Source: Wolbachia endosymbiont of Drosophila innubila
GTDB taxonomy: Bacteria > Pseudomonadota > Alphaproteobacteria > Rickettsiales > Anaplasmataceae
Reading direction: 5' to 3'
Length of the DNA: 32,000 bases
Assembly (NCBI RefSeq): GCF_021378375.1
Contig: NZ_CP076228.1
Coordinates: 1,050,001 to 1,082,000, forward strand
Below are positions 11,895-32,000 of this stretch, in pieces. The notes under the pieces were generated by a model, which searched no databases, was not told the origin of the DNA, and saw only the letters and a program-made list of their open reading frames with translations. Numbering within the stretch: position 1 is the first letter of the stretch; each line of letters begins with the position of its first letter. The position numbers and the translations under genes are program-made.

Positions 11895-11910
11895 GTTGTC
11901 GTTTAGCCAT

Positions 11911-13633: not shown

Positions 13634-13680
13634 ATTTCTTTTCTATCACAACATTTGATTTTAAGCAATCTATAAAAGCT

Positions 13681-15207: not shown

Positions 15208-15311
15208 TATTTATATAAACTACTTAGCAATATTACACTTAAGAAACCAAAATACCTAAAAAGTCACCCAGGTGAAAATATTTATTTTGAAAACTGATAA
15301 TATGATTTATA

Positions 15312-15821: not shown

Positions 15822-15880
15822 TGTTCAGAGCTTATAACCCTGTTATCCATTATGATTTAGGGGCAGTGCCCACTAGGGGT

Positions 15881-16167
15881 GGTGTCATCCCAGTAGCTGA
15901 TACACAACTGTACGAACATTTGTTTGCGAGGGCAGTATGTTAAATGTTATAGCCTGTTTTGCCTCAAACACAAAGGTGTCATCCCAGTGCTTGACACTGG
16001 GATCCAGTAAAATTGATTGTGAACAAGCACACTATGCAACATTTTCAATGAAATTACAAAAAAGCTGGATTCCAGTGTCAAGCACTGGGATGACACCATT
16101 TGCTGTGCAATTTACCTTCGAAAATGAATGTTCGTATGGCTATGTGCGTGACACTGGGATGACACCG
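15881..16167. repeat. Nested family-2 MITE-like elements between nuoI and thrS
   Basis: Outer imperfect terminal inverted repeats are ggtgtcatcccagtagctgatacacaactgtacgaacattt and aatgaatgttcgtatggctatgtgcgtgacactgggatgacacc. An inner 123-bp copy lies at 15975-16097 (ggtgtcatcccagtgcttgacactgggatccag ... ctggattccagtgtcaagcactgggatgacacc). Confidence 0.85.
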
Positions 16168-16216
16168 TTGGAAGAAGCAAATCGCCTTCAAGCTACATGT
16201 CCGTATAGGTTTATTT

Positions 16217-18118
16217 ATGGTTAGGGTTACTTTTTCAACCGAACAAAAAGTAAAAGAATACAGTGGTAAAGTCACTGGCTTTGATATATTACAACCGGAT
16301 GCTTTGAAAGAAGTAGTTGCATTGAAAGTAAATGGTGAGCTATATGACCTCTCACGTGAAATTGAAGCTGATGCAGAGATAGAGGTGATACAACTGAGTG
16401 ACGAAGTGGGTTTAGATATAATAAGGCATGATGCTGCTCATATAATGGCGCAGGCAGTGAAAGAGCTATTTCCTAATACTCAGATTACTATCGGCCCAAC
16501 AATTCAGGACGGTTTTTACTATGATTTTGCTACAGATCGTACCTTCACTACGGACGATCTTACCGCAATAGAAAAGAAAATGAAAGAGATTGTAAAAAGT
16601 AACCACAGATTTGTTCGAGAAGTTTGGACTCGCAAGCAGTCAGTTGATTTCTTTAGTGGTATAGGCGAAAAATATAAGGTTGATATTATCTCATCCATAC
16701 CAGAGGGTGAAAACCTAACTGTTTATAGGCAAGGTGATTTTGTTGACCTATGCCGTGGTCCGCACTCACCATCAACCGGTAGAGTTAAAGCGTTTAAACT
16801 TATGAAAGTAGCGGGTGCATACTGGCGTGGTGATTCTAAGGGCCCAATGTTGCAGCGAATATATGGCACAGCATGGGGAAATAAGGATGAATTAAACGCT
16901 TACCTTGAGTGCCTCAAAGAAGCAGAAAAACGTGATCACCGCAAAATTGCTAAGGATATGGATTTATTTCACATTCAAGAGGAAGCTGTTGGGCAGGTTT
17001 TTTGGCATGAACAAGGATATATTCTATATAATGTTCTTGAGTCTTACATCAGAAAGAAGCTAATAAATAATGGCTATTTTGAGGTAAAAACTCCTATTTT
17101 AGTAAGTAAAGAGCTGTGGGAAAGATCTGGACATTGGGATAAGTTTCGTGAAAATATGTTTATTGTTGACGAATCTGAGAATAAAAAGTTAGCAATAAAA
17201 CCCATGAATTGTCCTTGTCATGTGCAGATTTTTAATTCTCACACCAGGAGCTACCGTGATTTACCAATACGTATGGCAGAGTTTGGCACATGCCATAGAA
17301 ATGAAAGCTCAGGCTCATTGCACGGACTGATGCGAGTGCGTGGTTTTACGCAAGACGATGCACACATTTTTTGTATGGAAGAACAAGTGAATTCTGAGAC
17401 TATAAAGTTTTGTGACCTTTTAAAAGAAGTATATTCAGAGCTTGGATTTAATGAAATTTCTGTGAAATTTTCAGACCGTCCAGATATTAGAGCAGGTAAT
17501 GATGAAGTGTGGGATAGAGCTGAAAAAGCGCTGCTTGAAGCCGTTAAAGAAGCGGGCTTGAGTTATAAACTTAACCCTGGTGAAGGTGCATTTTATGGTC
17601 CAAAGTTAGAGTTCGTTTTGAAAGACGCAATAGGCAGAAATTGGCAATGTGGAACATTACAAGTTGATTTCATTTTACCAGAACGTCTGGGAGCTTTTTA
17701 TATAGGGGCAGATGGGCACAAGCATCACCCTGTCATGTTACATAGGGCAATTCTTGGGACTTTTGAGCGTTTTATCGGAATTTTGATAGAAAATTATGCA
17801 GGAAAATTTCCAGTTTGGCTTGCTCCAACGCAACTTGCTATTCTGACCATTACAAATGAAGCTGACGGTTACGCCACAGAAATTAGCAATATTTTAAAAG
17901 AACAAGGTGTGAGAGTCAAGACTGATTTGACCAATGAAAAAATTAGTTATAAGATACGTTTGCATAGTTCAAACAAGGTTCCTATATTGTGGATTGTAGG
18001 CAAAAATGAAGTTACAAGTAAAACTGTGTCAGTAAGAAATTTAGGATCGGAAAGACAGGAGTCTTTTTCTTTGGAAAAGGCTAATGAATCGCTGTTAAAA
18101 AGTATTAATTTGAATTAA
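16217..18118 (+). CDS. thrS: Threonine-tRNA ligase
   Basis: 633 aa. TGS-like N-terminus, editing-domain HDAAH motif region, class II core ([42 protein letters not shown]), C-terminal anticodon-binding domain. Confidence 0.94.
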
Positions 18119-18130
18119 GGGAGTTAAAGT

Positions 18131-18649
18131 TTGCAAGTTAAAAAGAACAATAAAAACAGAATTAATGGATTTATCACAGCTAAGGAGGTACGCTTAGTTG
18201 ATCATAGTGGTGAAATGGTCGGAATCGTGCCAATAGAACGAGCTTTGGAATTTGCACAGGGTGTTGGTTTAGACTTGGTGGAAATTGCACCTGATTCAAC
18301 CCCTCCAGTATGTAAAATTCTGGATTATAGCAAGCAAAAGTATGATATAAAAAAGAAAGCAAGTGAAGCAAAAAAGAAACAAAAAACATTAACTATAAAA
18401 GAAATTAAACTGGGTCCCAATATTGGTGATCACGATTACGGAACAAAATTGCGTCAAGCAAGAGACTTACTTGCCCACGGACATAAAATTAAAGTCACAA
18501 TGAGATTTAGAGGGAGAGAGCTTATAAACACTGAAGTTGGACTGGAAAAATTAGAACGGCTAATTCGAGACACTGAAGATATCGCAAAGGTAGAATTGGC
18601 ACCTAAAAGAGAAGGGAATCAATATTTTTTAGCTCTGGTTGCTAAGTAG
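18131..18649 (+). CDS. infC: Translation initiation factor IF-3
   Basis: 172 aa. INGFITAKEVRLVDHSGEMVGIV, and KKKQK..KEIKLGPNIGDHDYGTKLRQARDLLAHGHKIKVTMRFRGRE. Non-ATG start (TTG 18131) 7-8 nt after AAGGGAG. The thrS-infC order is conserved. Confidence 0.92.
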   Translation: MQVKKNNKNRINGFITAKEVRLVDHSGEMVGIVPIERALEFAQGVGLDLVEIAPDSTPPVCKILDYSKQKYDIKKKASEAKKKQKTLTIKEIKLGPNIGDHDYGTKLRQARDLLAHGHKIKVTMRFRGRELINTEVGLEKLERLIRDTEDIAKVELAPKREGNQYFLALVAK

Positions 18650-18677
18650 CAAAACGGCTTAAGAAGTATAAGTAAAG

Positions 18678-19931
18678 TTAAATTATCGCTCTCTCTTTGA
18701 TAACATGGCGAAAATGTCTTATTAATCCTTGAATCGGCCAAGCTGCAGCATCGCCAAGTGCGCAAATTGTATGTCCTTCTATTTGAGTTGTAAGGTCAAG
18801 CAGCTTATCTATTTCATCAGGCTTAATATCTCCTGCCACCATCCTCTTCATAATCCTCCACATCCATCCAGTACCTTCACGGCATGGTGTGCATTGTCCA
18901 CAGGACTCATGCATATAAAAGTGTGATAACCTCTCTATTGCAGCTATTATATCAGTTGATTTATTCATCACTATTACAGCAGCAGTACCAAGCCCTGATT
19001 GTGCAGTTCTTAATGAATCAAAATCCATTTCAATAGTATCACATATAGATTTTGGAATTAATGGCACTGAAGACCCACCAGGTATTACAGCAAGTAAATT
19101 ATCCCAACCTCCTCGCACTCCACCTGCGTATTTTTCAATTAATTCACGTAATGGAATTCCGAGCTCTTCTTCAACATTACACGGGTTGTTTACGTGCCCT
19201 GAAATACAAAAGACCTTGGTACCAGTATTATTTGGTTTACCAAGAGATGCAAACCATTCTCCTCCGCGATTCAGAATATCTGGAACCATGGCTATAGTTT
19301 CAACGTTGTTTATTGTGGTTGGGCAGCCAAAAAGTCCAACACCTGCGGGAAATGGAGGCTTCATGCGAGGAAAGCCCTTTTTTCCTTCAATTGATTCGAG
19401 TTGAGCTGTTTCTTCCCCACATATGTAAGCTCCTGCGCCCCTATGGATAAACACATCAAGATCATAACCTGATTTGCAGGCATTTTTTCCAATTAAACCT
19501 TCTTTATAGGCTTCCTCAAGTGCTTTTTTTAGAACTAAATATTCATTATAAAATTCACCCCTGATATAAATATATGCAACTGATGCGCTGATCGCTTTGC
19601 CGGCCAGGAGAATTCCCTCAAGTAACTTATGTGGCTCATATCGCAATATATCTCTATCTTTACATGTACCAGGTTCTGACTCATCTGCATTGACTACTAA
19701 ATATGCTTTTGGGAGATTTTTGGGCATAAAGCTCCACTTAAGGCCGGTGGAAAATCCTGCACCCCCTCGACCTCTCAAACCAGATTTCTTTACTTCATCA
19801 ATGATCTTTTCTGATCCTAAATCCAGTAATTCCTTTGTTTTTTGCCAGCTACCACGTTTTTTTGCACCCTCAAGTAGTGGAGTTCCTTTACCATTTAGGT
19901 TGGTGAATATTTTGTCTTGTTCTTTTAGCAT
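18678..19931 (-). CDS. nuoF: NADH-quinone oxidoreductase subunit F
   Basis: [14 protein letters not shown].., [16 protein letters not shown] (FMN site), [12 protein letters not shown] (4Fe-4S). The start is set at ATG 19929-19931 (418 aa). The track start 19982 would overlap tRNA-Lys. Confidence 0.92.
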
Positions 19932-19950
19932 GTTTTTCAAAATTTGTGAG

Positions 19951-20023
19951 TGATCCCGACGCGATTCGAACGCGTGACCCACTGATTAAAAGTCAGTTGC
20001 TCTACCGGCTGAGCTACGGGATC
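19951..20023 (-). tRNA. tRNA-Lys (anticodon UUU)
   Basis: The minus strand reads GATCCCGTAGCTCAGCCGGTAGAGCAACTGACTTTTAATCAGTGGGTCACGCGTTCGAATCGCGTCGGGATCA. It has a 7-bp acceptor stem, anticodon stem ACTGA/TCAGT with loop CUUUUAA, and T-arm ACGCG-TTCGAAT-CGCGT. CCA is not encoded. Confidence 0.9.
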
Positions 20024-20140
20024 ATTTCATTTTTCAGCTATACTAAACATCAATACAGTTTTTATCCGTTTTAATCAAACTAAAATTTTCATGTATGGTT
20101 AAATAAATTATATAATATACTGCGTTAGTGATAATTTAGT
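20024..20140 (-). pseudogene. Probable heavily decayed continuation of a second Rpn-family gene (remnant)
   Basis: The minus strand downstream of the intron-2 insertion point reads D*IITNAVYYIIYLTIHENFSLIKTDKNCIDV*. This is loosely alignable to Rpn DILIHFLNDILGFTEINTIQEVEFLS..DKQSIVDVL (TIHENFS ~ TIQEVEFLS; DKNCIDV ~ DKQSIVDV). The remnant ends at tRNA-Lys. Confidence 0.35.
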
Positions 20141-22057
20141 GTGCGCCAAGAAGTGCGTAAGGAACAGTTGGTGAAAATCCAACACGGGTAAAGCTTAGCC
20201 GGCAACCTGGAACAAACCATTATGCTGCGTAAGGTAACGAGCGTAGTAAAGCTAATGGAATGGACAACATAGGGTGCAACGAAAGTGAAGGTATTGAGTC
20301 CCGTAATTCACGCGTCATGGGGGCTGACACTTTACATTTGGTGGAAGGCAACATGGGTAATAACGCTAAGGCAAGATATTACTCACCTCATCGGGATCGA
20401 AGGCCGCGTCATGTGTTGAGATGGACCTTACGTGAACTTGGGAGATCCTTTGTATTCCTGTAAGGGTACTCTGGAACAAGTCAATAAAGGCGAGGACTGG
20501 AGGAAGATGCAAAGGAAGTCGGACTAATTGATAGTACTCGGAGTGTGGGAAAGCCACATACAAGGGGAAGCGGTTAGCAATATAGTGACTGGTATAGGGA
20601 TTGCTATACCAATACAACAGAGATTAGAGGAGTATGCAAGGAAAACTAAACCAGATAGCAGTAAGGGCTAAGCAAGATAAGCGAGTAAAATTTACATCAT
20701 TAGTTCATTTGATTAATGAAGAGAATCTTGCAGAGTGTTATAAGGAACTAAACGCAACAAGGCTTGTAGTATAGATCGTGTGACAGTGGAAGCTTATGGA
20801 GAAAATCTAGAAGAGAAACTTAAAACACTAGTGGATAGTATGAAGAGAAAACAATATCAACCGCTACCAGTGAAAAGGGTATACATACCCAAAGCCGGGA
20901 GCAAAGAGAAGCGCGGTCTCGGAATACCATCAACGGAAGATAAGTTGGTACAGGTAATGCTAAAGAAGATATTAGAAAATATTTATGAAGCAAACTTTAT
21001 GGACAGCTCGTATGGATTTCGACCAGGAAGAAATTGTCATCAGGCGATAAACGCTCTAGATAAAGCAGTTATGCACAAACCAATTAACTATATTGTAGAA
21101 GTGGATATCAAGAAGTTCTTTGATAATGTTCAACATAAATGGCTAATGAATTGTCTAAGGGAACGAATAGCTGACCCAAATTTATTGTGGTTAATAAAAC
21201 GATTTCTAAAGGCAGGAATAGTCGAAGTTGGATGTTATAAAGCAACCGATCAAGGCACACCACAAGGTGGTATAGTAAGCCCTGTATTAGCTAATATATA
21301 CTTACACTATGTGCTGGACTTATGGTTTGAAAAGAAATTTAAGCCAAAAGCCAGAGGATATTTACAGCTAATAAGGTTTTGCGACGATTTTGTAGTTGGC
21401 TGCGAGAGGGAAGAAGACGCAAAAGAATTTCTAGAATTACTGAAACAAAGACTAAGTAAATTTGGGTTGGAAATAGCTGAAAATAAAACAAAAATAGTAA
21501 AGTTTGGTAAGAAAGAATGGTATCAAGCAGAAAGAGAGAAACGTAGGACGGCTAGCTTCAACTTTCTAGGATTTACACATTATTGTGGAAAAAGTCGTAA
21601 TGGTAAACTTATGATGAAGCAGAAAACTTCAAAAATAAGCCTAGCCAGAAAGATTAAAGAAATCAAAGAATGGTTGAAGATGGTACGAAGTCGTATCTGT
21701 TTCAAAGATTGGTGGCAGAAACTTAAAGCCAAACTAACAGGACACTATAGCTACTTCGGAGTTAGCGGAAATTATCGGTGTTTGATTCAATTCTATCGAC
21801 CGGTAACAAAGTTAGCATTTAAGTGGATAAACCGACGTAGTCAAAAGAAAAGTATGGATTGGGAACAATTTATACACTATTTAAAAAGTAAATCCATTAC
21901 CAAAACCAAAGGTATATGTTTCTTTATACACAGGAGCACTAGTGTGAACGCTGTATTGTGGAGCCGTGTGCGGGAAATCCGCAAGCACGGTTCTTTTGGG
22001 GAGACTATGGTTATGAGACCAAATCGCTGGTTTCAAGGTCATGAGTCTCTACCAGAC
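20141..22057 (+). mobile_element. Group II intron no. 2 (1917 nt), a different lineage from intron 1, with an En-less type IEP
   Basis: 5' GTGCGCC at 20141. Canonical 34-nt domain V at 21961-21994 (GAGCCGUGUGCGGGAAAUCCGCAAGCACGGUUCU). A long domain VI hairpin (GGAGACUAUGGUUAUGAGACC..GGUUUCAAGGUCAUGAGUCUCU) has a bulged A 7 nt before the 3' end ..ACCAGAC at 22057. The 3' flank is the antisense of an Rpn N-terminus. Confidence 0.8.
20634..21947 (+). pseudogene. Group II intron reverse transcriptase/maturase (IEP), two compensating homopolymer frameshifts
   Basis: ATG 20634 gives MQGKLNQIAVRAKQDKRVKFTSLVHLINEENLAECYKEL, then stop. The frame continues as KRNKACSIDRVTVEAYG.. if one A is added to the run 20750-20752. 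The main frame carries RT motifs (RGLGIPSTEDKLVQ, YGFRPGRNCHQA, GTPQGGIVSPVLANIYL, FCDDFVVG) and X domain (LTGHYSYFGV). The C-terminus VNPLPKPKVYVSLYTGALV* (stop 21945-21947, 13 nt before domain V) is in the original frame after the A5 run 21883-21887. Confidence 0.8.
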
Positions 22058-22133
22058 CTTTATTCTTCTCAGTACCAAAGATACGCTTGAACGCGTAATT
22101 GTTTTTTGGATCTAAAAACTTTGATAAAACCAT
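22058..22133 (-). pseudogene. Second Rpn-family gene, N-terminal 25 codons, cut by intron 2 in antisense orientation
   Basis: The minus strand reads ATG GTT TTA TCA AAG TTT TTA GAT CCA AAA AAC AAT TAC GCG TTC AAG CGT ATC TTT GGT ACT GAG AAG AAT AAA G, that is MVLSKFLDPKNNYAFKRIFGTEKNK. The upstream 35-40 nt (..cttaaaaaccattaatattatacactatt) is homologous to the sequence upstream of the first Rpn gene (4621-4660). Confidence 0.75.
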
Positions 22134-22184
22134 AAGAAATCCACTTAAAAACCATTAATATTATACACTATTTTCCGCGATCTT

Positions 22185-23072
22185 TCAACTTAATATTCTC
22201 CCTGTATTTACTTGATATGGCACTGTAACCTTTCCGGTTGATCCACTACGGTTTTTTGCAACATTTATCTCTAAGTCGTTATTAGAATCAGCCTTGTAAT
22301 AATTTTCTCTGTAGAGTAATAACACTAGATCAGCATCTTGTTCAATACTTCCTGATTCGCGTAGGTCTGCTAATTGTGGTCTTTTATTTTGTCTGTCTTC
22401 TACCTTACGGCTTATTTGTGATAATGCTACAATAGGAATATTAAAGTCTTTTGCTATATTTTTTAAAGTTCTACTGATTTCTGTTACTTCAAGAGTTCTA
22501 TTTTCGGTTACTTTCGATCCTCTGAGTAACTGTAAGTAATCAATGTATATGCATTTCATTTTATATTTTCTGCAAATTAATGAGATTTTTTTCTTTAGGA
22601 TATTTAAATCCATATTTCCTGAATTATCGACAAGAATATTTAAAAAAACTATTTGATTTATCCCTTTATGTAAAAGTTCTGTGTTTTGTTTCTTGATAAT
22701 ATTGTTTATTGTCTCATTGACTTCAATACTGATCATTCTATTGATTAACTGATTTGCTGACATTTCAAGTGAGAAAAAGCAGACATATTCTTGATTTTTC
22801 AGTAATTTTGCAGCTTGCAGAGCCATGTGTAGTGCTATTGAGGTCTTGCCAATTGAAGTACGAGCTGCAAGCACTGTTAATTCTCCTTCTTTTAAGCCAC
22901 CAGTTATAGTATCAAGTCTAGGTATTCCTGTTGTTATTCCTTCTATTTCATTGTTGTTTGCAAGTAGTTTATTAATGTAGCTTTTATAAGCTTCAAAATA
23001 ATCAATAATTGGCTTGATGTCTTCATCAACATGTGGCATTTGGTCGATCCTGACCACTCCTTCCTGATCCAT
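22185..23072 (-). CDS. DnaB-like helicase, C-terminal RecA-like domain only
   Basis: 295 aa. GIPRLDTITGGLKEGELTVLAARTSIGKTSIAL (Walker A), IYIDYLQLL (Walker B region), LSQISRKVEDRQNKRPQLADLRESGSIEQDADLVLLLYRENYY (DnaB motifs H3/H4). It lacks the DnaB N-terminal primase-interaction domain. Confidence 0.85.
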   Translation of the reverse strand: MDQEGVVRIDQMPHVDEDIKPIIDYFEAYKSYINKLLANNNEIEGITTGIPRLDTITGGLKEGELTVLAARTSIGKTSIALHMALQAAKLLKNQEYVCFFSLEMSANQLINRMISIEVNETINNIIKKQNTELLHKGINQIVFLNILVDNSGNMDLNILKKKISLICRKYKMKCIYIDYLQLLRGSKVTENRTLEVTEISRTLKNIAKDFNIPIVALSQISRKVEDRQNKRPQLADLRESGSIEQDADLVLLLYRENYYKADSNNDLEINVAKNRSGSTGKVTVPYQVNTGRILS

Positions 23073-23255
23073 TCTCTACCTTAAACCGGAGGCTCCTCAA
23101 ACTCTAAATCTTGTTTTCGTCGCCTCTCCCCTAATTATATATTATATATATAATAATATATAATATATAATTTATAGGGGGGTAACCAAAAAAATGAACT
23201 TTCTTTGAGCTGAGCGAAGCCACCTAAGGTAGAGAATGGATCAGGAAGGAGTGGT
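23053..23255. repeat. 203-bp palindromic region: perfect 31-bp inverted repeat arms around a 141-bp spacer with a 45-bp pure A/T core
   Basis: 23053-23083 (accactccttcctgatccattctctacctta) is the exact reverse complement of 23225-23255. The left arm contains the helicase RBS-like aaggtagaga, the ATG and the first 6 codons. The core 23132-23176 is 100 percent A/T, bracketed by CCCC (23128-31) and GGGGGG (23177-82). The spacer halves are weakly self-complementary. Confidence 0.9.
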
Positions 23256-23335
23256 GTATAAAATTATATATATAAAATCTTTAAGATTTTCTGTATAATT
23301 TACTCATGTAACTTGATAAAAAAGGAAGATAGAAT

Positions 23336-23635
23336 CTACTGAAGAGTATATGTATCGATTATCTTCAAAGCCTCTTCATAAATGGTGTCTCTATGCCCTA
23401 CTGCAACAATAGTTACTGCATGCTTTACAGTATTTACGCTATATATGATGCGATAATCACTAACTCTTAGCCTTCTGTGCCCTTTAAAGCTGTGGTGTAA
23501 TGGTTTACCAAGGTTCAATGGATCGACTGTAAGCCGATCATGTATTGCGTCTACAACTCTTGACCTTATCGTTTTTGGAAGGTCCGGAAGATTTTTCTTA
23601 AGAACGTTCCTTAAGAAGATAATAGTGTATTCCAA
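23336..23635 (-). CDS. Type II toxin, RelE/ParE (RelE/StbE-like) family
   Basis: 99 aa. MEYTIIFLRNVLKKNLPDLPKTIRSRVVDAIHDRLTVDPLNLGKPLHHSFKGHRRLRVSDYRIIYSVNTVKHAVTIVAVGHRDTIYE matches the RelE/StbE pattern (..L..L....GKPL...L.G..RLRVGDYRIIY.I......V.I..VGHR..IY). It overlaps the upstream antitoxin gene by 25 nt. Confidence 0.85.
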   Translation of the reverse strand: MEYTIIFLRNVLKKNLPDLPKTIRSRVVDAIHDRLTVDPLNLGKPLHHSFKGHRRLRVSDYRIIYSVNTVKHAVTIVAVGHRDTIYEEALKIIDTYTLQ

Positions 23636-23847
23636 TCTACATCCTCACTTCTAACCGTCTCTGCACCTTCAACGTCATACTCGTTAGCAACCACAGATAG
23701 TAAAAAGTCTTCCATTTCACGATCTATTGCTTCTTTAAATAGCCTTTCTGCTAATTCTTGAGTTGGCTGCTTAGTGAGCTCAACTAGCTTAGCAAAGTGC
23801 TGCAAAGTTTCTTTACTGAGAGCTATGTTAGTGCTTAAGTTTGCCAT
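23611..23847 (-). CDS. Antitoxin, ribbon-helix-helix type (RelB/ParD-like)
   Basis: MANLSTNIALSKETLQHFAKLVELTKQPTQELAERLFKEAIDRE.. fits a beta-strand/helix/helix RHH layout with an acidic C-terminal tail. It lies directly upstream of and overlapping the RelE-like toxin. The start at ATG 23845-23847 is preferred because the longer track start would include the predicted -10 box. Confidence 0.7.
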   Translation of the reverse strand: MANLSTNIALSKETLQHFAKLVELTKQPTQELAERLFKEAIDREMEDFLLSVVANEYDVEGAETVRSEDVDWNTLLSS

Positions 23848-23877
23848 ATGCTTTACCAAAGTTCTACTACTGTAACA

Positions 23878-23906
23878 ATTATACAACATTTTTCTGAACT
23901 TTTCAA
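23878..23906 (-). promoter_or_regulatory. Candidate sigma70-type promoter of the antitoxin-toxin operon
   Basis: The minus strand reads TTGAAA (23906-23901), a 17-nt spacer, then TATAAT (23883-23878), about 30 nt upstream of the antitoxin ATG. Both hexamers are consensus or near-consensus. In AT-rich DNA such matches also arise by chance. Confidence 0.45.
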
Positions 23907-24011
23907 TAAAGAAAGTTGATGATATGTAAAGAGAATTTTGTGCACCTGTGTTAATAAATTATTAATAATTTGGCATATACTGGAACTGGCTTTTGCTGAT
24001 GTTAGGGAGAA

Positions 24012-26534
24012 ATGACACAAAAGTTAATACTAAGTATAGTATTGCAAGATATTATCAAGAATAAGGAAGGTATGCCAGCTAGTGGGTACTGGATGTATTT
24101 TTATGATAAAAGAAGTCCAACTACTCTTCGTAATGCCTACTACAAGAACCAGGAGGGAAATGTCGTACCGGCACCAAACCCTTTGCAGCTTGATGAAAAC
24201 GGTGCTTTACCTCATAAGTTGTACTACTTTGTCGACGTTGATGATCCTGAAGATCGTTATACCGTAGAACTGAAGTGCAATTACGGTAATGCTGCAGCTC
24301 CTGAACTCATCTTTCATGATCTACCGTACTTTCAAGAACAATCCAAAGCAGATCCAGCTACATCTATATTATCTGATAACTTATTTATTGATGGTCAATT
24401 TAATATTGGTCTACAAATTAATGATAGAGGGCAGGGATCTGGTTATGTTTCACCTGAATTTTCGCAGGTGCCAATTGCTGGACTATCATGGCAGTTTTTA
24501 AGATCTTATGCTGATTCAGTACCGATACAGGATAGAACTGATGTAGACAGGATTTTCATTAAAGACATTACCGAAGCTGAAAGGATCGATGAAGGCAATC
24601 CTCGTTTTTATTTGAACGTTATTTGCGAAAAACCTAGCGAGACAACGCCACCTCTGCAGAAAGCTGTAACATTTAGGAGCTCTAATGTGTTATGGGGTAC
24701 TGATGCCAGAGCTTGGCTGAAGTTCTATGCTTGGAGAGGTGGTGATGATATAATAGTTAATTTACTGGCAATTCGTGATTTTGGTTCAAAATCATCAACA
24801 CCGCCACAAGTTATGTCAATTGATCAATTTTTAATTGATTCTGATACTCCGAAGGTTTATTACACTAGTTTAAGTTTGCTTGGCTTTGTAATACCTGCAG
24901 ATATTGGCGATGATCAAAGTTTGACATTGAAGTTTTTGTTACCACCGAATCGAGCATTTAATTTTAAAGCGACAAATTTTTATTGTGCAGAAGCCTCATT
25001 GCCAATACATGCAGTTGATTTTAAATACCCAACACAAAATTCTGATTTAGCAAAATCTAATTTATTATTTTCTTCATTTCGAGCAAATAAATATAGCATT
25101 GATAACAGTTACAATGAGCTAGTTTTTACAATTGATGGTCTTAAGTTTGTAGATAATATTGGTGAAATAGTTTCCTACCCAAAAGGAGCAAAAGTCGACG
25201 AGGAAAAGATAAATCTGCTCAAGTGCGATGGTCGCACACTTGATTCAACAGGTATTAGTCCGCTCGGCATTGAATACAAAAGGCTATATAACAAGCTAGA
25301 TCATGCTCCAATTACATTTGATATGCTTAAAACCAAAGACATACCAAATTGGTTTAATGCAATATCAAGTGAGTATATTAAGAAGTTTATTGCGGATAAT
25401 AATGTTAAAGTTAAATTCGAGGGAGATGGAGTAGTAAATCCGAAGCCCGAAGGTGATGATATAGGTCATCTATGGCTAGAAACTACATTCTATGCTAATT
25501 CAGATGTTAACTATGATTTTCAATATGTTGCAGCAGCAAATAGCATAGACCTTACTACTTGTTGTCATACGTTTGACATTACCACTAATTACTTAAGTAG
25601 TGGCATTCTAATGACTAATATGAATTTAAGGGAGATAAAATTTGCGGGTTCTGGTTCTGATTTTCCAGGTTATTTTCAAACTATAACTAAATTAAATTCA
25701 ATTTATAATTATACAAATAATGTTGTGCCATACAATAAAGGTATTGATAAAATAACTGAGCAAACTAAAATAAATTACTCTGTTAAAAAGAATTTTTTTT
25801 ATTTGACAGTAAGTCTTAATTATCAACAATTTCCGTATCCTTCCGGTTTATGTGGATTTTTTAATCCAGTTAATTTTAGTAGTAGAGTTTATGATATTGG
25901 TTTTCCTTTAAATATACCATCGGTTAGCGCTACTTTTTTGCAACACAATAATAATACTACTAGTACTTCACAAAGTTACTTTTTGTTTTCACCATGGTTT
26001 GTGTATTCAATGGCTTCAGTACATGGTACAAGTATTAGTTCTAGTGGTGGAGATTACCCTAGTTTCATTCATGGTGATTCTAGTGATTTATTAATGAAGT
26101 CATGGGGTGATTACGTTATTTACAAACAATCAGCAACGGACAAGAGAACACCAGGAAAACCGAATGTTCTGTTTGCTGGTAAAAATTCAGTGATAACCTA
26201 TGCTATACAGCATAAAGCTTTGTTTACGCAAAGATGCTTGTATGTCTTGAAATTTAAAGAAGTGAAAGCAGGAGACTTTATAGGTCTTAAAACATCTCAT
26301 AACACCCAAACTGGTAACAATTTTAACACAGTAATATGGTGGAGTGTTGATGGTGATGGAAAAGCACCAACTAATGTTACCGCCAAAGAATTTAGAGAAG
26401 TCAAAGCAACAAAAGATACGACACCAGAGCAACTCGCAGACATGATTGCCAATGATATTAACAATAAGGGAACAACTATATTCCACATTCCTAATATCAC
26501 TGACGATAAGTGTGACTACTACATAAGGTGCTAA
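24012..26534 (+). CDS. Large (840 aa) hypothetical protein; N-terminus reminiscent of phage tail-fibre/tailspike proteins
   Basis: Long uninterrupted ORF with a strong SD (tAGGGAGaaATG). It is rich in N/S/Y/F/T, suggesting beta-rich structure, and has no TM segment or catalytic motif that I recognise. The N-terminal pattern DIIKNKEGMPASGYWMYFYDKRSPTTLRNAYYKNQEGNVVPAPNPLQLDENGALP resembles the D..G.PL.GG.IY.Y..GT.TP...Y.D......NP..LD..G motif seen at tail-fibre N-termini. That resemblance is pattern memory, not a search result. Confidence 0.8.
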   Translation: MTQKLILSIVLQDIIKNKEGMPASGYWMYFYDKRSPTTLRNAYYKNQEGNVVPAPNPLQLDENGALPHKLYYFVDVDDPEDRYTVELKCNYGNAAAPELIFHDLPYFQEQSKADPATSILSDNLFIDGQFNIGLQINDRGQGSGYVSPEFSQVPIAGLSWQFLRSYADSVPIQDRTDVDRIFIKDITEAERIDEGNPRFYLNVICEKPSETTPPLQKAVTFRSSNVLWGTDARAWLKFYAWRGGDDIIVNLLAIRDFGSKSSTPPQVMSIDQFLIDSDTPKVYYTSLSLLGFVIPADIGDDQSLTLKFLLPPNRAFNFKATNFYCAEASLPIHAVDFKYPTQNSDLAKSNLLFSSFRANKYSIDNSYNELVFTIDGLKFVDNIGEIVSYPKGAKVDEEKINLLKCDGRTLDSTGISPLGIEYKRLYNKLDHAPITFDMLKTKDIPNWFNAISSEYIKKFIADNNVKVKFEGDGVVNPKPEGDDIGHLWLETTFYANSDVNYDFQYVAAANSIDLTTCCHTFDITTNYLSSGILMTNMNLREIKFAGSGSDFPGYFQTITKLNSIYNYTNNVVPYNKGIDKITEQTKINYSVKKNFFYLTVSLNYQQFPYPSGLCGFFNPVNFSSRVYDIGFPLNIPSVSATFLQHNNNTTSTSQSYFLFSPWFVYSMASVHGTSISSSGGDYPSFIHGDSSDLLMKSWGDYVIYKQSATDKRTPGKPNVLFAGKNSVITYAIQHKALFTQRCLYVLKFKEVKAGDFIGLKTSHNTQTGNNFNTVIWWSVDGDGKAPTNVTAKEFREVKATKDTTPEQLADMIANDINNKGTTIFHIPNITDDKCDYYIRC

Positions 26535-26566
26535 CATGAAATAAATTTAAAAATAGGAGAAAAAAC

Positions 26567-26824
26567 ATGATTGAACAAAACAGTAAAATCGATGAAATCG
26601 ATATTGAAATCAGTGAAAAAAATGCTGAAATCGATCATTTTTATGAAGAAACTTTAGAAAAAACGAAAAATATCATCGATGAGGCGATAGCCAAAGGGTA
26701 TACGCTTGGTGATGATGATCGTAAAGTTTTAGAGCTGGTAAAGGCTAATGAGAAATTTGCTGAAAAAGTTCTAAGAGGTTGTTCGGAAACTAGTAAATTC
26801 AAGCATATTCCCTCTTTAACATAA
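26567..26824 (+). CDS. Small acidic, probably coiled-coil protein, C-terminus replaced by IS sequence
   Basis: SD AGGAG lies 7 nt before the ATG and 32 nt after the 840-aa gene. The sequence [45 protein letters not shown].. is heptad-like and acidic. From codon 70 (26774) the ORF reads into the IS inverted repeat, so the last 16 residues are IS-derived. Confidence 0.6.
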
Positions 26825-27258
26825 CCCTACTCATAGCTAGGTATATGAAATTCTCAGTGGATGTTGTGAGTAAATCATACTCCTTCGATAGCCTTCTATT
26901 CCTATTAACCCAAGCAAAAGTCCTTTCTACAACCCATCTTCTTGGCTGTACTTTTAAACCCTTGTTCTCTTGTTGGTAGTAGCTCAGGTGGCGTATCTTT
27001 GTGCACCCAAAATCTACATGGAGGCCTTTTAACAATTTCAATATCTATGTCATATTCTTCCTTTATGTGATTCTTTAAATTTCTTCCTTGGTATCCCATG
27101 TCAGCCCACATTTTTTAACTTTAGTATATTTTGTTCTCATATTGTTTAATGCTATTTTAATACCATCTCTATCATTTTCGTTAGCAGCGCCTACGTAACA
27201 ACCTAGTATAAAACCCTGAGTGTCTGTAATTATATGCCTTTTTCTACCCTTTACTTTT
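26799..27258 (-). pseudogene. IS5-family transposase OrfB (DDE catalytic part) with an extra frameshift
   Basis: [67 protein letters not shown] is followed, in another frame, by [26 protein letters not shown]. The break is at tttAAAAgta (26952-26955 on the plus strand), where three As would give a continuous frame. Confidence 0.75.
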
Positions 27259-27628
27259 TACTTCCATCATAGCTTTGATCCCCCTTTTCTGTAGTCTTTA
27301 CAGATTGACTATCTACTATACAGGCACTCGGCTGCTCATTCTTTCCTATTTTTCTTCTACTATATTTTGTAATTTCATAATTCATTTTCTCAAAAATTCC
27401 CTGCTTCTTCCATTGCCTGAACTGCTCATACACAGTCTTCCATAGCGGAAAATCATTTGGTAAATACCGCCATTGACACCCTGTACGCAATACATAGAAA
27501 ATTGCTTCTAATATTTCTTTTTTGCTATACTTTGGCAGCCTTCCTCCTTTCTTGTATGATACTCTGAAGTGTTTTTCTATTCTTGCCCATTCCCTTTCGC
27601 TTAGATCTGTTGGATACTTTTTTCTCAT
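27251..27628 (-). CDS. IS5-family transposase OrfA (N-terminal DNA-binding part)
   Basis: 125 aa. MRKKYPTDLSEREWARIEKHF..RTGCQWRYLPNDFPLWKTVYEQFRQWKKQGIFEKM is the typical IS5/DUF4096 HTH region. It ends at AGT AAA AAG TAA, where an A5G run could support -1 slippage into the OrfB frame (KVKGRKRHIITD..). Confidence 0.8.
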   Translation of the reverse strand: MRKKYPTDLSEREWARIEKHFRVSYKKGGRLPKYSKKEILEAIFYVLRTGCQWRYLPNDFPLWKTVYEQFRQWKKQGIFEKMNYEITKYSRRKIGKNEQPSACIVDSQSVKTTEKGDQSYDGSKK

Positions 27629-27689
27629 CTTTACCCCGTACTAAAATTTCAGATATTATAGCCTTTTACTTGTTTCCGGACAACCTCTG

Positions 27690-28154
27690 ATTATAAATTT
27701 CAAATTTTTTGATAATTTGAATTACGTAAAAATCTATGCAAAGTGGATACACCAAGCTAATCAGGATACATTTCAGAACGCAGAGATCATAATCCCTATA
27801 CCGTTACATAAAATGCGCTTGTTTAAACGTAAATATAATCAAGCAGCACTGCTTGCAAAAGAATTGAGTAAGTTGTCCAATTTATCCTATACGCCATTTG
27901 CAATAAAACGCCTTCGCCATACTGCGCCTCAAGCTGGTCTTTCACTTAAACAGCGTGAAAAAAATTTAAAGAAGGCTTTTAAAACAAGCAACAAGAAAAT
28001 TATCGAAAATAAAATCGTGATATTAGTTGATGATGTGGTAACAACCGGAGCAACTGTAAGATCTTGCTCTCAGGAAATTTTAAACTCCGGTGCAAAAGAA
28101 GTGAGAGTGCTATCACTTGCAAGAACGGTGAATGATTGTGAGGCTATTACATAA
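27690..28154 (+). pseudogene. comF: ComF-family phosphoribosyltransferase-like protein, 5'-truncated by the IS
   Basis: C-terminal PRT fold: IVILVDDVVTTGATVRSC, PIPLHKMRLFKRKYNQAALLAKEL, QAGLSLKQREKNLKKAF. The frame is open upstream right to the IS end (..LIINFKFFDNLNYVKIYAKWI). The N-terminal zinc-finger part of roughly 80-90 aa expected for ComF is absent. A TTG at 27717 could still allow expression of 145 aa. Confidence 0.7.
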
Positions 28155-28221
28155 AATCTTGGCTTGCTTTTACTATATCCATAAAATTATAATTTATAGT
28201 TGAATAGTTGTTGGGGAGCGT

Positions 28222-29076
28222 ATGAGTATAAAAGAGCAAGAAATTGATGCTATATTCCAAGAAATAGAGCAAGAATCAAAAGAAAGTGACATAATTGAAG
28301 AAATTAAGCAAAAGCTGCTCGCATGTAACCAAGATACATACAATCAGTGGAAAAGACTTAATTTTCACATAGATCATTTATTTGAAATACGGCAAGAGAT
28401 TACCCATGCTTCTAGGTATTATACTACTGCGTTAAACATTGCTGCTCATAAAGGCTTAGTAAAAACAGTAAGACGTCTACTGGAGAAAGGTGCAGAGGTT
28501 AGTACACGCGATGGTGGTGGACACACTGCTCTGCATTGTGCCGCTAGCAGCGGTAATACGGAAATAATAGAATTACTACTGGAGCAAGGAGCACATATTC
28601 ACTCATGTTCTAAACTTGGCTCAACACCGCTGCATTTTGCTGCTACTAATAATCATATAAATGCAGTGAGGTGCCTGTTAAATAAAGGAGCTAGTCCTTT
28701 AGCACTAGATAATAATAATTCCATTCCCAGTATGTTTGCTACAGACAAAGAGGTGATTGCTGTCTTGGAGAAAGCAGAAGAAGAGAAGCATAAGGAAAAT
28801 GCTGCTGCTTTAAAGAAAGCAGAAGAAGAAAAACATAAGAGAGAAATGGAATGTAAGAAAAAAAGGCAAGCAAAAATGATTGCTGTAGGTGGTATTGCAA
28901 CTGCATTGATAGTGGCGGGTATTGGATACATTGTTGAATTACCTATACTAGTAACTATTGGTATATCTGTATCCATTGCATTAGTATCTGTTTGCATTGC
29001 GTACGTAATGTCAAAACCTAACACTAAAATGGAAGGAACAGAGAGCTCTGTACAGGAAATTGGTCAGAGTATATAG
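28222..29076 (+). CDS. Ankyrin-repeat protein with C-terminal transmembrane anchor
   Basis: Three to four ANK repeats (TALNIAAHKGLVKTVRRLLEKGAEV; HTALHCAASSGNTEIIELLLEQGAHI; STPLHFAATNNHINAVRCLLNKGASP). A duplicated KAEEEKHK segment follows, then two hydrophobic helices (MIAVGGIATALIVAGIGYIV; LVTIGISVSIALVSVCIAYVM). Confidence 0.88.
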   Translation: MSIKEQEIDAIFQEIEQESKESDIIEEIKQKLLACNQDTYNQWKRLNFHIDHLFEIRQEITHASRYYTTALNIAAHKGLVKTVRRLLEKGAEVSTRDGGGHTALHCAASSGNTEIIELLLEQGAHIHSCSKLGSTPLHFAATNNHINAVRCLLNKGASPLALDNNNSIPSMFATDKEVIAVLEKAEEEKHKENAAALKKAEEEKHKREMECKKKRQAKMIAVGGIATALIVAGIGYIVELPILVTIGISVSIALVSVCIAYVMSKPNTKMEGTESSVQEIGQSI

Positions 29077-29077
29077 G

Positions 29078-30652
29078 TCAAGATAAAACTTTACTTTTAA
29101 TAACTTCAACATCACTAAACTCAAAGGTTTGATTCCCTATGATTTGAAATTTCTCATGTCCTTTTCCTGCAACCAGCAGAATCATACCCTCGTTATAGGC
29201 AATATCTATGCCTTTTTCTATGGCTTCTTTCCTGTCCCCTATCTCCAGTGCACTAGGACAATATAGCAAAATATCGTGGCGAATTTTTGCAGGATCTTCA
29301 TCACGCGGATTGTCATCTGTGATTATTACTTTGTCTGCATACATTTGTGCTATTTTACCCATTTCTGAACGCTTCTTCCGATCACGATTGCCACCGCATC
29401 CAAAAACTAGGACTATTTTTTTGTTGAAGTGCCATTTTAAAGACAACAGGGCTTGTTTAAGCGCACTTGGAGTGTGTGCGTAATCCACGAATGCAAAAGG
29501 TTTAACTTTTTCCATTCTTCCTGGTGGAGAAACGAGTTTACCTATAGATATTTCTCTGTAATTCAGTCCAGACGAGGTAACTATACCAATTGCACACAAC
29601 AGATTATATGCTTGAAATTGCCCCAAAACTGGAAAAAACATGTTATAAATTTCATCGCCAATTTTAATTGTAAGGTATTGACCATTAGGGGTTGGTGTTT
29701 GCTCTAATAAAGTAATATCAGAACCTGTTTTTCCATAGGTGATAACTTTGTTGCTGCGTTTTTCAGCTATTTTAAGCAATGCATGGTACTCATTTATATC
29801 CGCATTTAAAATTACTGTTTCTCCCTCTGGTAGTACCTCATAAAATAACCTTTTCTTAGCCTCAAAATACTCATCGATACTCTTATGATAGTCCAAATGA
29901 TCTTGCGAGAAATTAGTAAAAGCTGCAGCAGTGAACCTAAGTCCATGAATTCTGTATTGGTCAATTCCATGGCTTGAAGCCTCTAATGCTAATTGTTCTA
30001 CGTTCTTACTATTTATACCACATAATGTGGAATAAAGGTCATCTGCGCCTGGAGTGGTAAGATTATCGCTATTATCTTCTCTGTCATTATTGATGCATGT
30101 TCCAAGTGTTCCAATAGACGCAGCATTATAGCCAGAGTTTTGCCAGATCTGGCGGCAAAATTCTACTACTGAAGTTTTACCATTTGTACCAGTTACAGCA
30201 GCAACATATTTGGGCTGTTTGAATTGATAAAACCTGCTGACTATTTCTCTGTATATTTCTTGAGGGTTTGGGTGGTCAAGCACTGCAAAACTCGGAGTAT
30301 TTGTCATGCAAGTAGCTGACACTGGAATCCAGTTTTTATTATGCAATTGCTTAGTGTGTTCATTTGCAATTAAATTTTCTGGATCCAAGTAGTCAAGCAC
30401 TGGGATGACATCTTTTTTGGTTCCTTGTATGACAACGTCTACACAGTCGTGTGCGTGATACTGGGATTCAGTAGGAAAAATCTGGATACATGCTGGTTTT
30501 CTAGATTCCAGCGTCACGCGCTGGAATGACACCGCAGACACACAAACAAAAAGATAACCTTCCTTTACTCTATTGGGATTACATGTAACGCCCTTGATTT
30601 CAATATCAAAGTTAACATCAATAATGTTATGCAGTAATTCTCTCAGTTTCAT
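29078..30652 (-). CDS. murE: UDP-N-acetylmuramoyl-L-alanyl-D-glutamate-2,6-diaminopimelate ligase with repeat-derived N-terminal insertions
   Basis: 524 aa. VTGTNGKTS (P-loop), LEASSHG, FTNFSQDHLDYH, DYAHTPSAL, GCGGNRD, DNPRDEDP and GKGHE are Mur ligase/MurE motifs. The P-loop is displaced about 45 residues further from the N-terminus than usual. Confidence 0.9.
   Translation of the reverse strand: MKLRELLHNIIDVNFDIEIKGVTCNPNRVKEGYLFVCVSAVSFQRVTLESRKPACIQIFPTESQYHAHDCVDVVIQGTKKDVIPVLDYLDPENLIANEHTKQLHNKNWIPVSATCMTNTPSFAVLDHPNPQEIYREIVSRFYQFKQPKYVAAVTGTNGKTSVVEFCRQIWQNSGYNAASIGTLGTCINNDREDNSDNLTTPGADDLYSTLCGINSKNVEQLALEASSHGIDQYRIHGLRFTAAAFTNFSQDHLDYHKSIDEYFEAKKRLFYEVLPEGETVILNADINEYHALLKIAEKRSNKVITYGKTGSDITLLEQTPTPNGQYLTIKIGDEIYNMFFPVLGQFQAYNLLCAIGIVTSSGLNYREISIGKLVSPPGRMEKVKPFAFVDYAHTPSALKQALLSLKWHFNKKIVLVFGCGGNRDRKKRSEMGKIAQMYADKVIITDDNPRDEDPAKIRHDILLYCPSALEIGDRKEAIEKGIDIAYNEGMILLVAGKGHEKFQIIGNQTFEFSDVEVIKSKVLS
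30303..30533. repeat. Two family-2 palindromic element copies inside the murE coding sequence
   Basis: 30303-30409: gtcatgcaagtagctgacactggaatccag ... ctggatccaagtagtcaagcactgggatgac. About 30451-30533: gtgcgtgatactgggattcag ... ctagattccagcgtcacgcgctggaatgacacc, whose ends match the 16.1-kb and 9.1-kb intergenic copies. These encode murE residues of about 40-117, including [10 protein letters not shown]. Confidence 0.8.
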
Positions 30653-31860
30653 CTGCCAGTTTTAGTGTTCAAACATGGCAACCTTGCTAGTGCAGCATTT
30701 AAATCAGAGATTAAATCTTCAGGATCTTCCAGTCCACAAAATATCCGTATAAAACTTCCACCATAATCTGAATTCATTACAGATCTTGACATAGATCTAC
30801 GATCTATTGGTAATATCAAACTGTCGCATCCTCCCCAAGAAGCACCGATACCAAAAATTTTCATGTGATCAACCATGCAGCTTAGTTCTTCACATGAATA
30901 TTCTCTATCTAGTGCTATACTGAATGTGCCGCTTGCTCCTTTGAAGTAACTTTTCCATAATTCGTGTTGAGGATGGGAGGGAAGTGCTGGATACAAAACT
31001 TTTTTGATTTTTGAATGTTTTTCTAGCCACTTTGCCACTTCCATTGCTGTATTTTGGTACCTTTTCATACGTGTGTACAATGTTCTAAGTCCCCTATGTG
31101 CAAGGTAGCAGTCGTGCGATTGAATGGTTACCCCATAATTTTTATAGCTCTCATAAAGCAATTTAAAAATTTCACCTTCAGCAATAATAGCCCCCATCAC
31201 TAAATCTGAGTGACCGGCTAGATACTTTGTCACCGCATATAGTGCAACATCAACTCCATAATCAAGCGGCTTAAATAACAAAGGAGTGGCCCATGAATTG
31301 TCACAAACGGTCACAATTTTATGTTCCTTAGCAACTTTTACTATATGCTCTATATTCGAAATCTCAAACGTTACAGAACCAGGAGTCTCGATCATTATCA
31401 ATGAAGTATTACTCTGAATTAAATCAGTTATATCCTGTGTTGGATCATAAAAAGTTACTTCTGTTCCTCTTTTTGGTAGCTCATTTTCTGCAAACCTCCT
31501 AAGCCTATAATAACTATTATCTTGAATTAAAACGTGCGAGCCTGCTTTAGCGAAAGTTAGAATAGCAAAAGTAAGTGCAAATAGTCCGGAAGGATAAATA
31601 AGCGCTTGTCCACTCCCTTCAATTTCAGCCAGTGCATTTGAAAGATAATGAACAGTAGGAGTACCAACATTACTGTAGCTATAATCCCTTGCAACACCAT
31701 CGTTGATTACATCGTATATACTTTCTCCATTTGCTGCATTTAAGTAGTCCTTGTAAGTAGGGAATAATATGGTAGAAGAATGATAAACTGGCGGGTTCAT
31801 GGAACCTTTATAGTCATTAAATTTTCTTCCTGCTTTAACTAATATAGACTCTTCCTTCAC
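30649..31860 (-). CDS. metC: Cystathionine beta-lyase (Cys/Met-metabolism PLP enzyme)
   Basis: 403 aa. MNPPVYHSSTILF, YSNVGTPTV, and YAVTKYLAGHSDLVMGA (PLP lysine context). The ATGA overlap with murE suggests co-transcription. Confidence 0.8.
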   Translation of the reverse strand: MKEESILVKAGRKFNDYKGSMNPPVYHSSTILFPTYKDYLNAANGESIYDVINDGVARDYSYSNVGTPTVHYLSNALAEIEGSGQALIYPSGLFALTFAILTFAKAGSHVLIQDNSYYRLRRFAENELPKRGTEVTFYDPTQDITDLIQSNTSLIMIETPGSVTFEISNIEHIVKVAKEHKIVTVCDNSWATPLLFKPLDYGVDVALYAVTKYLAGHSDLVMGAIIAEGEIFKLLYESYKNYGVTIQSHDCYLAHRGLRTLYTRMKRYQNTAMEVAKWLEKHSKIKKVLYPALPSHPQHELWKSYFKGASGTFSIALDREYSCEELSCMVDHMKIFGIGASWGGCDSLILPIDRRSMSRSVMNSDYGGSFIRIFCGLEDPEDLISDLNAALARLPCLNTKTGR

Positions 31861-31867
31861 ATTTTTA

Positions 31868-32000
31868 TTATTTATTTTTTAAATTGTACTCATCTTGCGT
31901 ATACAAGTGAAGAGAAATTGCATGTATTAGCTCTATCTCACCCTTCAATAACTCATAAATCAACTTGTGTCTTTTTAGAACGCTCATTCCAATAAAGCCG
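31868..32000 (-). CDS. BolA-family protein, C-terminal 43 codons (5' end beyond window)
   Basis: The minus strand reads ..FIGMSVLKRHKLIYELLKGEIELIHAISLHLYTQDEYNLKNK*. This matches the BolA C-terminal pattern (..R.VY..L...I...IHALS..TYTP.E). Not in the ORF track because it is short and partial. Confidence 0.6.
   Translation of the reverse strand, partial: GFIGMSVLKRHKLIYELLKGEIELIHAISLHLYTQDEYNLKNK

Follow-up and report, generated by a model that had tools for sequence, protein, structure and literature searches.

What kind of element lies between nuoF-tRNA-Lys and comF in the chromosome of the Wolbachia endosymbiont of Drosophila innubila (wInn), and how did it come to be there? The stretch that we analysed, hereafter the window, comprises 32,000 nucleotides (NZ_CP076228.1, positions 1,050,001 to 1,082,000; all window positions count from its first letter) and carries at 22134-26773, together with the flanking junctions, a block of five open reading frames (ORFs). 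A first-pass annotation, made from the letters alone, had read this block as a plasmid- or phage-like replicon, integrated or degraded, that is akin to the Wolbachia plasmids and bounded by mobile-element scars. ORF translations and Pfam and PHROG matches place the five ORFs where that annotation had put them, and comparison with known plasmids supports its proposal. We consider it highly probable that the block is the relic of an integrated phage-plasmid of the pWALBA1 type, consisting of the left five genes (the left-hand third) of the so-called Dozen island, with borders that were later reshuffled by recombination between repeats.

The kinship with pWALBA1 is extensive. The BLASTN search against Wolbachia plasmids which the first-pass annotation had proposed returned one single colinear alignment of 4.7 kb (window 22060-26779 against pWALBA1 3298-7963, NZ_CP101658.1), at 86.6-87% nucleotide identity and covering 97% of the block. 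The genes follow the order and orientation of the plasmid: Rpn, DnaB_C, RelE, RelB, HP2 and HP3. At the amino acid level DnaB_C, RelE, RelB and HP2 are 97.3%, 99%, 98.7% and 76.5% identical to their pWALBA1 counterparts, and the corresponding ratios of non-synonymous to synonymous divergence (dN/dS) of 0.04, 0.09, 0.13 and 0.31 argue that these are real genes and not noise. The synonymous divergence from pWALBA1 is itself very uneven along the block (dS of 0.26 for dnaB_C, 0.04-0.05 for relBE and 0.49 for HP2), a pattern that points to exchange between plasmid lineages by recombination, which Martinez et al. (2022, PMC9560607) had inferred for other genes. A scan of genome contigs with DnaB_C returned only cellular DnaB genes of unrelated phyla, and none from Wolbachia; an exact-match search with the DnaB_C protein likewise gave no entry.

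A replication module of prophage WO would be another conceivable source, as some spider islands adjoin WO regions (PMC9560607) and the RelB/RelE genes annotated in WO records are 66% similar to relBE at the nucleotide level. That match is weak, however, and the only other one is a run of 48 nt at the end of the insertion sequence (IS) on the right border; no WO record matches DnaB_C, the palindrome in front of it or HP2, whereas the whole block is colinear with pWALBA1. The genes are therefore not plain orthologues of a WO replication module, and we rejected a WO origin, to which we give next to no credence.

Integrated elements of this type are known. Martinez et al. described pWALBA1, with its genes for a P22-like portal, TerL, coat and stabilisation protein, and also 'pWALBA1-like chromosomal islands' with transposable elements at their flanks and transposases truncating them (PMC9560607); the 'Dozen island' goes back to Baiao et al. 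(2021, as cited in PMC9560607). Since wInn and wBor are both marked 'yes' for plasmid-like regions in the S4 table of PMC9560607, the element is of a published kind in a strain already flagged, and the locus is ordinary for Wolbachia. In close relatives the island is complete, with 12 genes of which DnaB_C is the first and a truncated P22-like portal the last; it lies there at other loci, adjoining hemC-murB or pgm, and is 99.7-99.85% identical to the block. Its order there is Rpn (split by a different intron), DnaB_C, RelE, RelB, HP2, HP3, coat, HP4, stabilisation protein, two small ORFs, a 608-aa protein and the truncated portal. The locus in the window shares with these islands the genes, their order, the transposable-element flanks and the truncation, but it holds only genes 1-5 of the 12, being split at an IS in HP3 and at an intron in Rpn.

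Although block and plasmid are colinear at 86.6% nucleotide identity and have a palindrome at the equivalent position, pWALBA1 is a free circle of 18.8 kb in which Rpn and HP3 are intact and which also has ParA/ParG/HP1 and genes for coat, portal, a RuvC-like protein and TerL; all of these are lacking here. Neither the window ORFs nor Pfam revealed a ParA-like, ParG-like or HP1 partition ORF in or beside the block, and because this partition module is absent we regard the block as a fragment and not as a complete replicon. Nor is there a gene for coat, stabilisation protein, P22-like portal or TerL in the window to the right of HP3; these head and packaging genes are found in relatives L033-L037 and L039-L041.

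Both sides of the block are chromosomal. The left flank (6217-20140, with thrS, infC, nuoF and tRNA-Lys) is 99.8% identical to genomes of the wMel group, and the right flank (27688-32000, with the 3' part of comF, an ankyrin gene, murE and metC) is 99.95% identical to them. A chromosomal state of the block itself is probable, as judged by sequence comparison, namely from these flanks and from the right junction, which is also present in wBor. Comparison of synteny, another of the checks proposed earlier, showed that the wMel site is empty and that the block is missing from the tRNA-Lys/comF locus in close relatives, which carry the island at other loci and some of which have an intact comF (241 aa in L027, L028, L030 and L031). 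HP2 in the window is residue-for-residue identical to the wInn (UID81164.1) and wBor proteins, and the window differs from the wBor draft by its left flank and by 19 substitutions.

The right border is an IS5-family element (ISWpi1-like; 26775-27687, minus strand) of 913 bp with DUF4096 and DDE_Tnp_1_2 ORFs and 16-nt inverted repeats. As the first-pass annotation had noticed, it cuts both the last ORF of the block and comF: HP3 is interrupted at about codon 70 of 179, and the chromosomal comF retains 145 of 241 aa in a 3' fragment (27688..28154, plus strand; Pfam Pribosyltran). Intact copies of this IS make 3-bp target duplications, and we compared the flanks of the copies in the window, L020, L029, L033, L035 and L036. 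The copy at an unrelated chromosomal site in L020 is flanked by TAA and TAA. The copy in HP3 of L033, at the position and in the orientation seen in the window and with the island continuing beyond it, is also flanked by TAA and TAA, and the copy in comF of L029 (OX366379.1), at the window's position and with the rest of comF beyond it, by TGA and TGA; both comF halves are present in L029 around an identical IS insertion. In the window, by contrast, the IS has TAA on its HP3 side and TGA on its comF side, and so lacks a matching TNA duplication even though its ORFs and inverted repeats are present. Because TAA comes from HP3 and TGA from comF, and each is seen paired in relatives, we conclude that the window IS is a hybrid of two older insertions, formed by homologous recombination. 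A single simple insertion cutting two adjacent genes was rejected on the TAA/TGA mismatch and on the relatives which carry each insertion separately. The HP3'-IS-comF junction recurs in an independent assembly, that of wBor (L015).

Two further relatives have the IS in HP3 at the identical TAA (L035 and L036, 12764-13680), in the opposite orientation to the window copy at 26775-27687. Its flanks are TAA and TAA in L035, but the L036 copy has an unrelated sequence (TTA...) on its far side. We read this as an in-place inversion or repeated use of the target, plus further rearrangement at this IS.

The left border is a group II intron (20141..22057, plus strand) of 1917 nt, beginning with GTGCG, which is matched in Rfam by RF02005 (group-II-D1D4-6, 20174-20406, 132 bits) and by RF00029 (Intron_gpII, domain V, 21959-22057, 51 bits) and which contains a reverse transcriptase (RT) ORF at 20780-22090 (Pfam RVT_1, E=3.5e-42). 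Next to it stands a stub of Rpn, a PD-(D/E)XK nuclease/transposase gene (22133-22059, minus strand), reduced to its first 25 codons (Pfam PDDEXK_2, positions 1-19) and 96-97% identical to the 5' ends of Rpn in pWALBA1 (3298-3371) and pWALBA2. The first-pass annotation had seen here a decayed Rpn gene carrying an intron. Stub and intron are indeed present, but Rpn sequence adjoins the intron on its 3' exon side alone; on the 5' side the intron meets chromosomal DNA beside tRNA-Lys. Colinearity with wMel ends at 20140, one base before the intron starts, and Rpn is uninterrupted at this point in L033, which defines the insertion point at codon 25. With a chromosomal 5' flank and a plasmid Rpn 3' flank, the intron is a recombination joint; the wMel-type intergenic DNA on its 5' side led us to reject a simple insertion of the intron into a resident Rpn. 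In wBor the same intron and island are present, but the 5' flank is bioY-DUF1284; between the window and wBor there must have been one or more additional rearrangements through the intron, unless the draft is mis-joined.

In this junction intron the RT ORF continues past domains V/VI and extends 33 nt into the Rpn exon. It has no maturase-domain match, and in wBor it is only 220 aa long. The ORF may be defective, and the intron is probably no longer mobile.

The first-pass annotation took the mobile elements for scars bounding an accessory cassette. The present borders are instead hybrid repeats and not insertion scars of the island itself, and since both are hybrid, we conclude that the island was split by repeat-mediated rearrangement. 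The sequence of events may be pictured as follows. A group II intron inserted in the island Rpn would have recombined with another copy, presumed to have lain beside tRNA-Lys (no intron copy was found there in any genome examined), and an IS inserted in HP3 would have recombined with the IS copy in comF. The two recombinations would have placed between nuoF-tRNA-Lys and comF a fragment that retains what appears to be a replication and maintenance module (palindrome, DnaB_C and RelBE) and the start of a structural operon (HP2 and the HP3 stub). The two chromosomal breakpoints are separated by 76,273 bp in OX366379.1, with their relative orientation kept. The net effect relative to that genome is the replacement of a 76,273-bp segment by a 6.6-kb fragment of intron plus island, and segment exchange, nested inversions or deletion would all fit the window. 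The reciprocal junctions are predicted to read Rpn remainder-intron-TAAAAAATCTATG and comF 5' half-IS-TAAGTGGTGAAG.

Several observations weigh against this history. With only the 32-kb window in view, neither the reciprocal junctions nor the remainder of the island was found. Both borders are repeats, where assemblies mis-join, and the left flank differs between the window and the wBor draft. Moreover, all four complete ORFs are intact, and the word relic applies to the element and not necessarily to each of its genes. The same features could be taken to mean that the block still belongs to a replicon that is active. It might be a free plasmid which assembly mis-joined to the chromosome at the intron and IS copies, or an integrated copy able to excise and to replicate by means of the palindrome and DnaB_C. 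Neither DnaB_C nor RelBE nor the palindrome is disrupted, and all of them show strong conservation; kindred elements occur as free plasmids, with a depth that is 4- to several-fold (PMC9560607); and the short-read contig L016 has its breaks precisely at the palindrome and the IS. Nevertheless, only 4.7 of about 18.8 kb is present, without ParA/ParG/HP1 or packaging genes; the block contains no recombinase or attachment site; and the wMel-like sequence of both flanks and the recurrence of the right junction in wBor speak for a chromosomal location. We therefore regard an active replicon as very unlikely and retain the reading of the block as a displaced fragment of an integrated element, which would have lost its autonomy.

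The genes of this fragment were examined individually. The first, on the minus strand at 22185-23072, encodes an intact 295-aa helicase (Pfam DnaB_C, 1e-79, residues 45-290; PHROG_19, 1e-77), in which the Walker A (GKTS) and DYLQL motifs are readable. Pfam found DnaB_C alone, and in a PDB sequence search residues 20-286 aligned to residues 160-431 of a 454-aa DnaB, corresponding to the linker and C-terminal domain only. The protein thus lacks the N-terminal primase-binding domain, unlike the cellular replicative DnaB, and is the RecA-like half of DnaB that the first reading had recognised.

Upstream of the helicase gene lies a toxin-antitoxin module of the RelBE/ParDE type II layout, with a toxin, an overlapping small upstream ORF and a promoter-like site, all on the minus strand. 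The toxin (23336-23635, 99 aa) is of the RelE/ParE family (Pfam ParE_toxin, 9e-10; PHROG_1213 RelE-like, 4e-18). The putative RelB antitoxin (23611..23847) overlaps relE by 25 nt; its ORF is open to 23889, but the true start is probably at 23847, giving 78 aa as annotated in pWALBA1. RelB had no Pfam, PHROG or PDB sequence match; its pWALBA1 homologue, which is 98.7% identical, was assigned by HHpred to the ParD/RelB ribbon-helix-helix proteins at 98.9% (PMC9560607 S3). The near-consensus promoter reported earlier in front of relBE is the site TTGAAA-17-TATAAT (23878..23906), for which the evidence is an 11/12 match to consensus only.

In another Wolbachia, that of Cantharis cryptica (L040, OZ195521.1, positions 1-9900), there are two inverted Rpn-DnaB_C-palindrome-RelBE modules and four to five stacked toxin-antitoxin-like pairs upstream of HP2, so that the maintenance region is much larger than in pWALBA1.

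The palindrome (23053-23255), which overlaps the start of the helicase gene, is a nested structure of 203 bp with perfect outer arms of 31 nt, G/C-rich inner arms of 39 nt at 74% and an A/T core. Arm measurements and folding bear out its earlier description as a palindrome with an A/T core fronting the helicase: folded as DNA it reaches -56 kcal/mol (z = -13.5 against shuffles), which is far beyond chance. In pWALBA1-type elements the left arm spans the ribosome-binding site, the start codon and the first 7 codons of dnaB_C. The palindrome is also present in pWALBA1, pWALBA2, the wCon plasmid, the Cantharis Wolbachia island (two copies), all Dozen-island copies and two metagenome contigs; a search with the palindrome pattern gave no match among viral contigs, and metagenomes yielded those two short contigs only. 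In pWALBA1, pWALBA2, the wCon plasmid and the islands it adjoins a helicase or ATPase gene. Across its members the palindrome region averages 87% identity, while their HP2 proteins are 68-77% identical, and it is the most conserved non-coding element of the Wolbachia plasmid family. Hardly any variation is seen in the asymmetric inner parts; the A/T core differs in length from member to member.

The outer arms change together. In ten sequences, 7 of the 31 pairs had changed on both sides and 99.7% of cells were paired, a level of covariation reached by none of 500 shuffles. All six one-sided arm changes are G-U compatible on the plus strand, but we did not use this observation, as there are too few independent events. 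The aligned sequences show that the inverted repeat is maintained in the plasmid family, which selection on a hairpin or cruciform would explain, as would conversion between the arms. In pWALBA2 it is a gene for a RuvB-like ATPase (AAA+), not dnaB_C, that has the palindrome about 150 nt upstream of it. This argues for a role at the DNA level or in cis-regulation tied to a replication gene, rather than for a mere duplication of the dnaB 5' end.

The first-pass annotation had proposed the palindrome as a candidate origin of replication. The minimum of the cumulative GC skew of pWALBA1 falls near the palindrome, although this is confounded by gene orientation. A similar arrangement is known from pWCP of wPip, which has RelBE loci, a helicase of the DnaB_C type and, between genes, a palindromic region of about 200 bp, described as a 209-bp 'extragenic palindrome' with two nested palindromes and of unknown role (Reveillaud et al. 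2019, PMC6401122); the palindromes are likened by size and architecture only. In pWCP, however, a 2026 preprint predicts oriV elsewhere, at iterons formed by a 16-nt variable number tandem repeat (PMC12934988). Given the unknown role of the pWCP palindrome and the placement of oriV at iterons, an origin role in the pWALBA1 family is plausible but unproven. An equally live alternative is that the palindrome is a candidate translational or processing hairpin in transcripts reading through from relBE.

The right arm mirrors the start of dnaB_C and thereby creates a 20-codon mini-ORF (23233-23295, plus strand; MDQEGVVYKIIYIKSLRFSV) with a copy of the ribosome-binding site. It points towards the 3' end of relE, antisense to it, is conserved along with the arm and is probably meaningless.

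To the right of relBE, the block turns to the plus strand with HP2 (24012-26534, 840 aa) and the 5' fragment of HP3 (26567..26774). These two had been taken for an uncharacterised pair of cargo genes, a proposal which is not borne out, since they are the first genes of the phage-like structural operon of pWALBA1. HP2 always heads this plus-strand operon (HP3, coat ... portal ... TerL), which is why we do not regard it as accessory cargo. It had no Pfam or PHROG match; its close homologues are found only in Wolbachia plasmids and islands, and a profile-seeded word-index search likewise returned Wolbachia proteins only. An exhaustive profile search detected about 45 distant proteins of about 800 aa (E 1e-11 to 1e-4). 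Three of the ten that were examined have C-termini with PHROG 'tail collar fiber' or 'tail protein' domains, and one distant homologue, P0063, lies at the end of a structural module on a podovirus-like contig which also encodes Phage_stabilise, as pWALBA1 does.

Structure prediction points in the same direction. An AlphaFold model built from close Wolbachia homologues was unusable (predicted local distance difference test, pLDDT, of 37); after addition of the distant homologues the mean pLDDT rose to 52.6, with residues ~20-100 and 180-340 good and 430-740 poor or unmodelled. Foldseek comparison of this model with BFVD gave 137 matches at E <= 1e-3, down to 9e-17, for the modelled N-terminal half, and the named matches among the top 50 listed were mostly tail fibres or CenC-like carbohydrate-binding proteins. 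Against the PDB, the model matched carbohydrate-binding modules (CBM22, CBM11 and CBM4) and tailspikes. Judged from the model and the distant homologues, HP2 most likely acts in receptor binding, as a protein that resembles tail fibres and contains a CBM-type beta-sandwich; its higher dN/dS and a variable region at ~520-700 fit such a role. It resembles phage tail fibres and tailspikes with this fold (CBA120 TSP4, K2-2 TSP and T7-like fibres) in its modelled N-terminal half and in the tail-collar-fibre ends of its distant homologues. It differs from them in having no sequence-family match and a model of modest confidence, and the Wolbachia plasmids of this kind are not known to form particles.

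HP3 is cut by the IS at TAA after about 70 of its 179 codons, and an 85-aa ORF runs on from it into the IS to 26824. The empty site, GTTCTAAGTGGTGAAG, and an intact 179-aa HP3 are present in L034, L037 and pWALBA1. Pfam, PHROG and further searches gave no family match and no detectable relatives for HP3; its helical character and its position directly upstream of coat lead us to guess that it is a scaffold.

The intactness of these genes could also mean that they have been domesticated, with DnaB_C, RelBE and HP2 now serving Wolbachia in stabilisation of the region, in defence or, in the case of HP2, as a surface adhesin towards the host. The four ORFs are intact in at least eight strains (wInn, which is the window, wBor, L033 and L035-L038, and L034 without a called relE) despite heavy pseudogenisation elsewhere in the island, dN/dS against pWALBA1 is low, and the predicted fold of HP2 is of a carbohydrate-binding type. 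However, the block is no more conserved among strains (99.7-99.85%) than its flanks, so that intactness may only reflect youth; dN/dS mostly measures evolution in plasmid lineages; and other Wolbachia have truncated HP2 copies of 345-615 aa. Domestication therefore seems very unlikely to us, and we return to the fragment of an integrated phage-plasmid as the preferred reading.

The locus itself carries little weight, as one more rearranged piece of a published island. What is new here is that the junctions are hybrid and the island was split, that HP2 can be assigned as tail-fibre-like, and that the palindrome is conserved and covaries throughout the family. The junctions provide a clean worked example of how homologous recombination reshuffles Wolbachia chromosomes, with one group II intron copy recombining with another and likewise one IS copy with another, and of the fact that mobile elements at the flanks of an island do not mean insertion by those elements. 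The palindrome, DnaB_C and RelBE together are an obvious candidate for a minimal replicon, which, if true, would be useful for Wolbachia genetic tools; to our knowledge, Wolbachia still lacks a transformation system. HP2 as a tail fibre bears on whether Wolbachia plasmids make their own infectious particles. One may go further and suppose that the palindrome is an origin or an essential cis-control hairpin throughout the family, that with DnaB_C and RelBE it forms the minimal replicon, and that the HP2 fibre belongs to complete podovirus-like phage-plasmids and not to WO satellites; we put this joint reading forward tentatively, as a possibility that we would not bet on.

The window holds other traces of the same kinds of element. 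A second Rpn copy (1531-4653, minus strand) is 75-78% identical to the pWALBA1 Rpn. A different group II intron (Rfam group-II-D1D4-7, 4131-4279, minus strand) splits it between the pWALBA1-equivalent positions 3106 and 3126, and the RT of this intron is fragmented into three ORFs, 118, 90 and 329 aa long. In L034 the Dozen island has a right end, made up of portal stub, intron and Rpn, that shares 98.9% identity with window positions 2073-4801; from this similarity, these positions may be another displaced island border. Beside this Rpn copy, a perfect 12-nt tandem array (CTTCAATTTTCC, ~10 copies) at 1411-1590 overlaps the 3' end of a 184-aa ORF (1235-1789, minus strand). Finally, Rfam matches to WsnRNA46 (Wolbachia sRNA 46) at 15958-16113, where both strands score, and at 30289-30424 coincide with a dispersed family of palindromic repeats of 36-41 nt (TGTCATCCCAGTG...CACTGGGATCCAG), which is present at no fewer than 8 places in the window.

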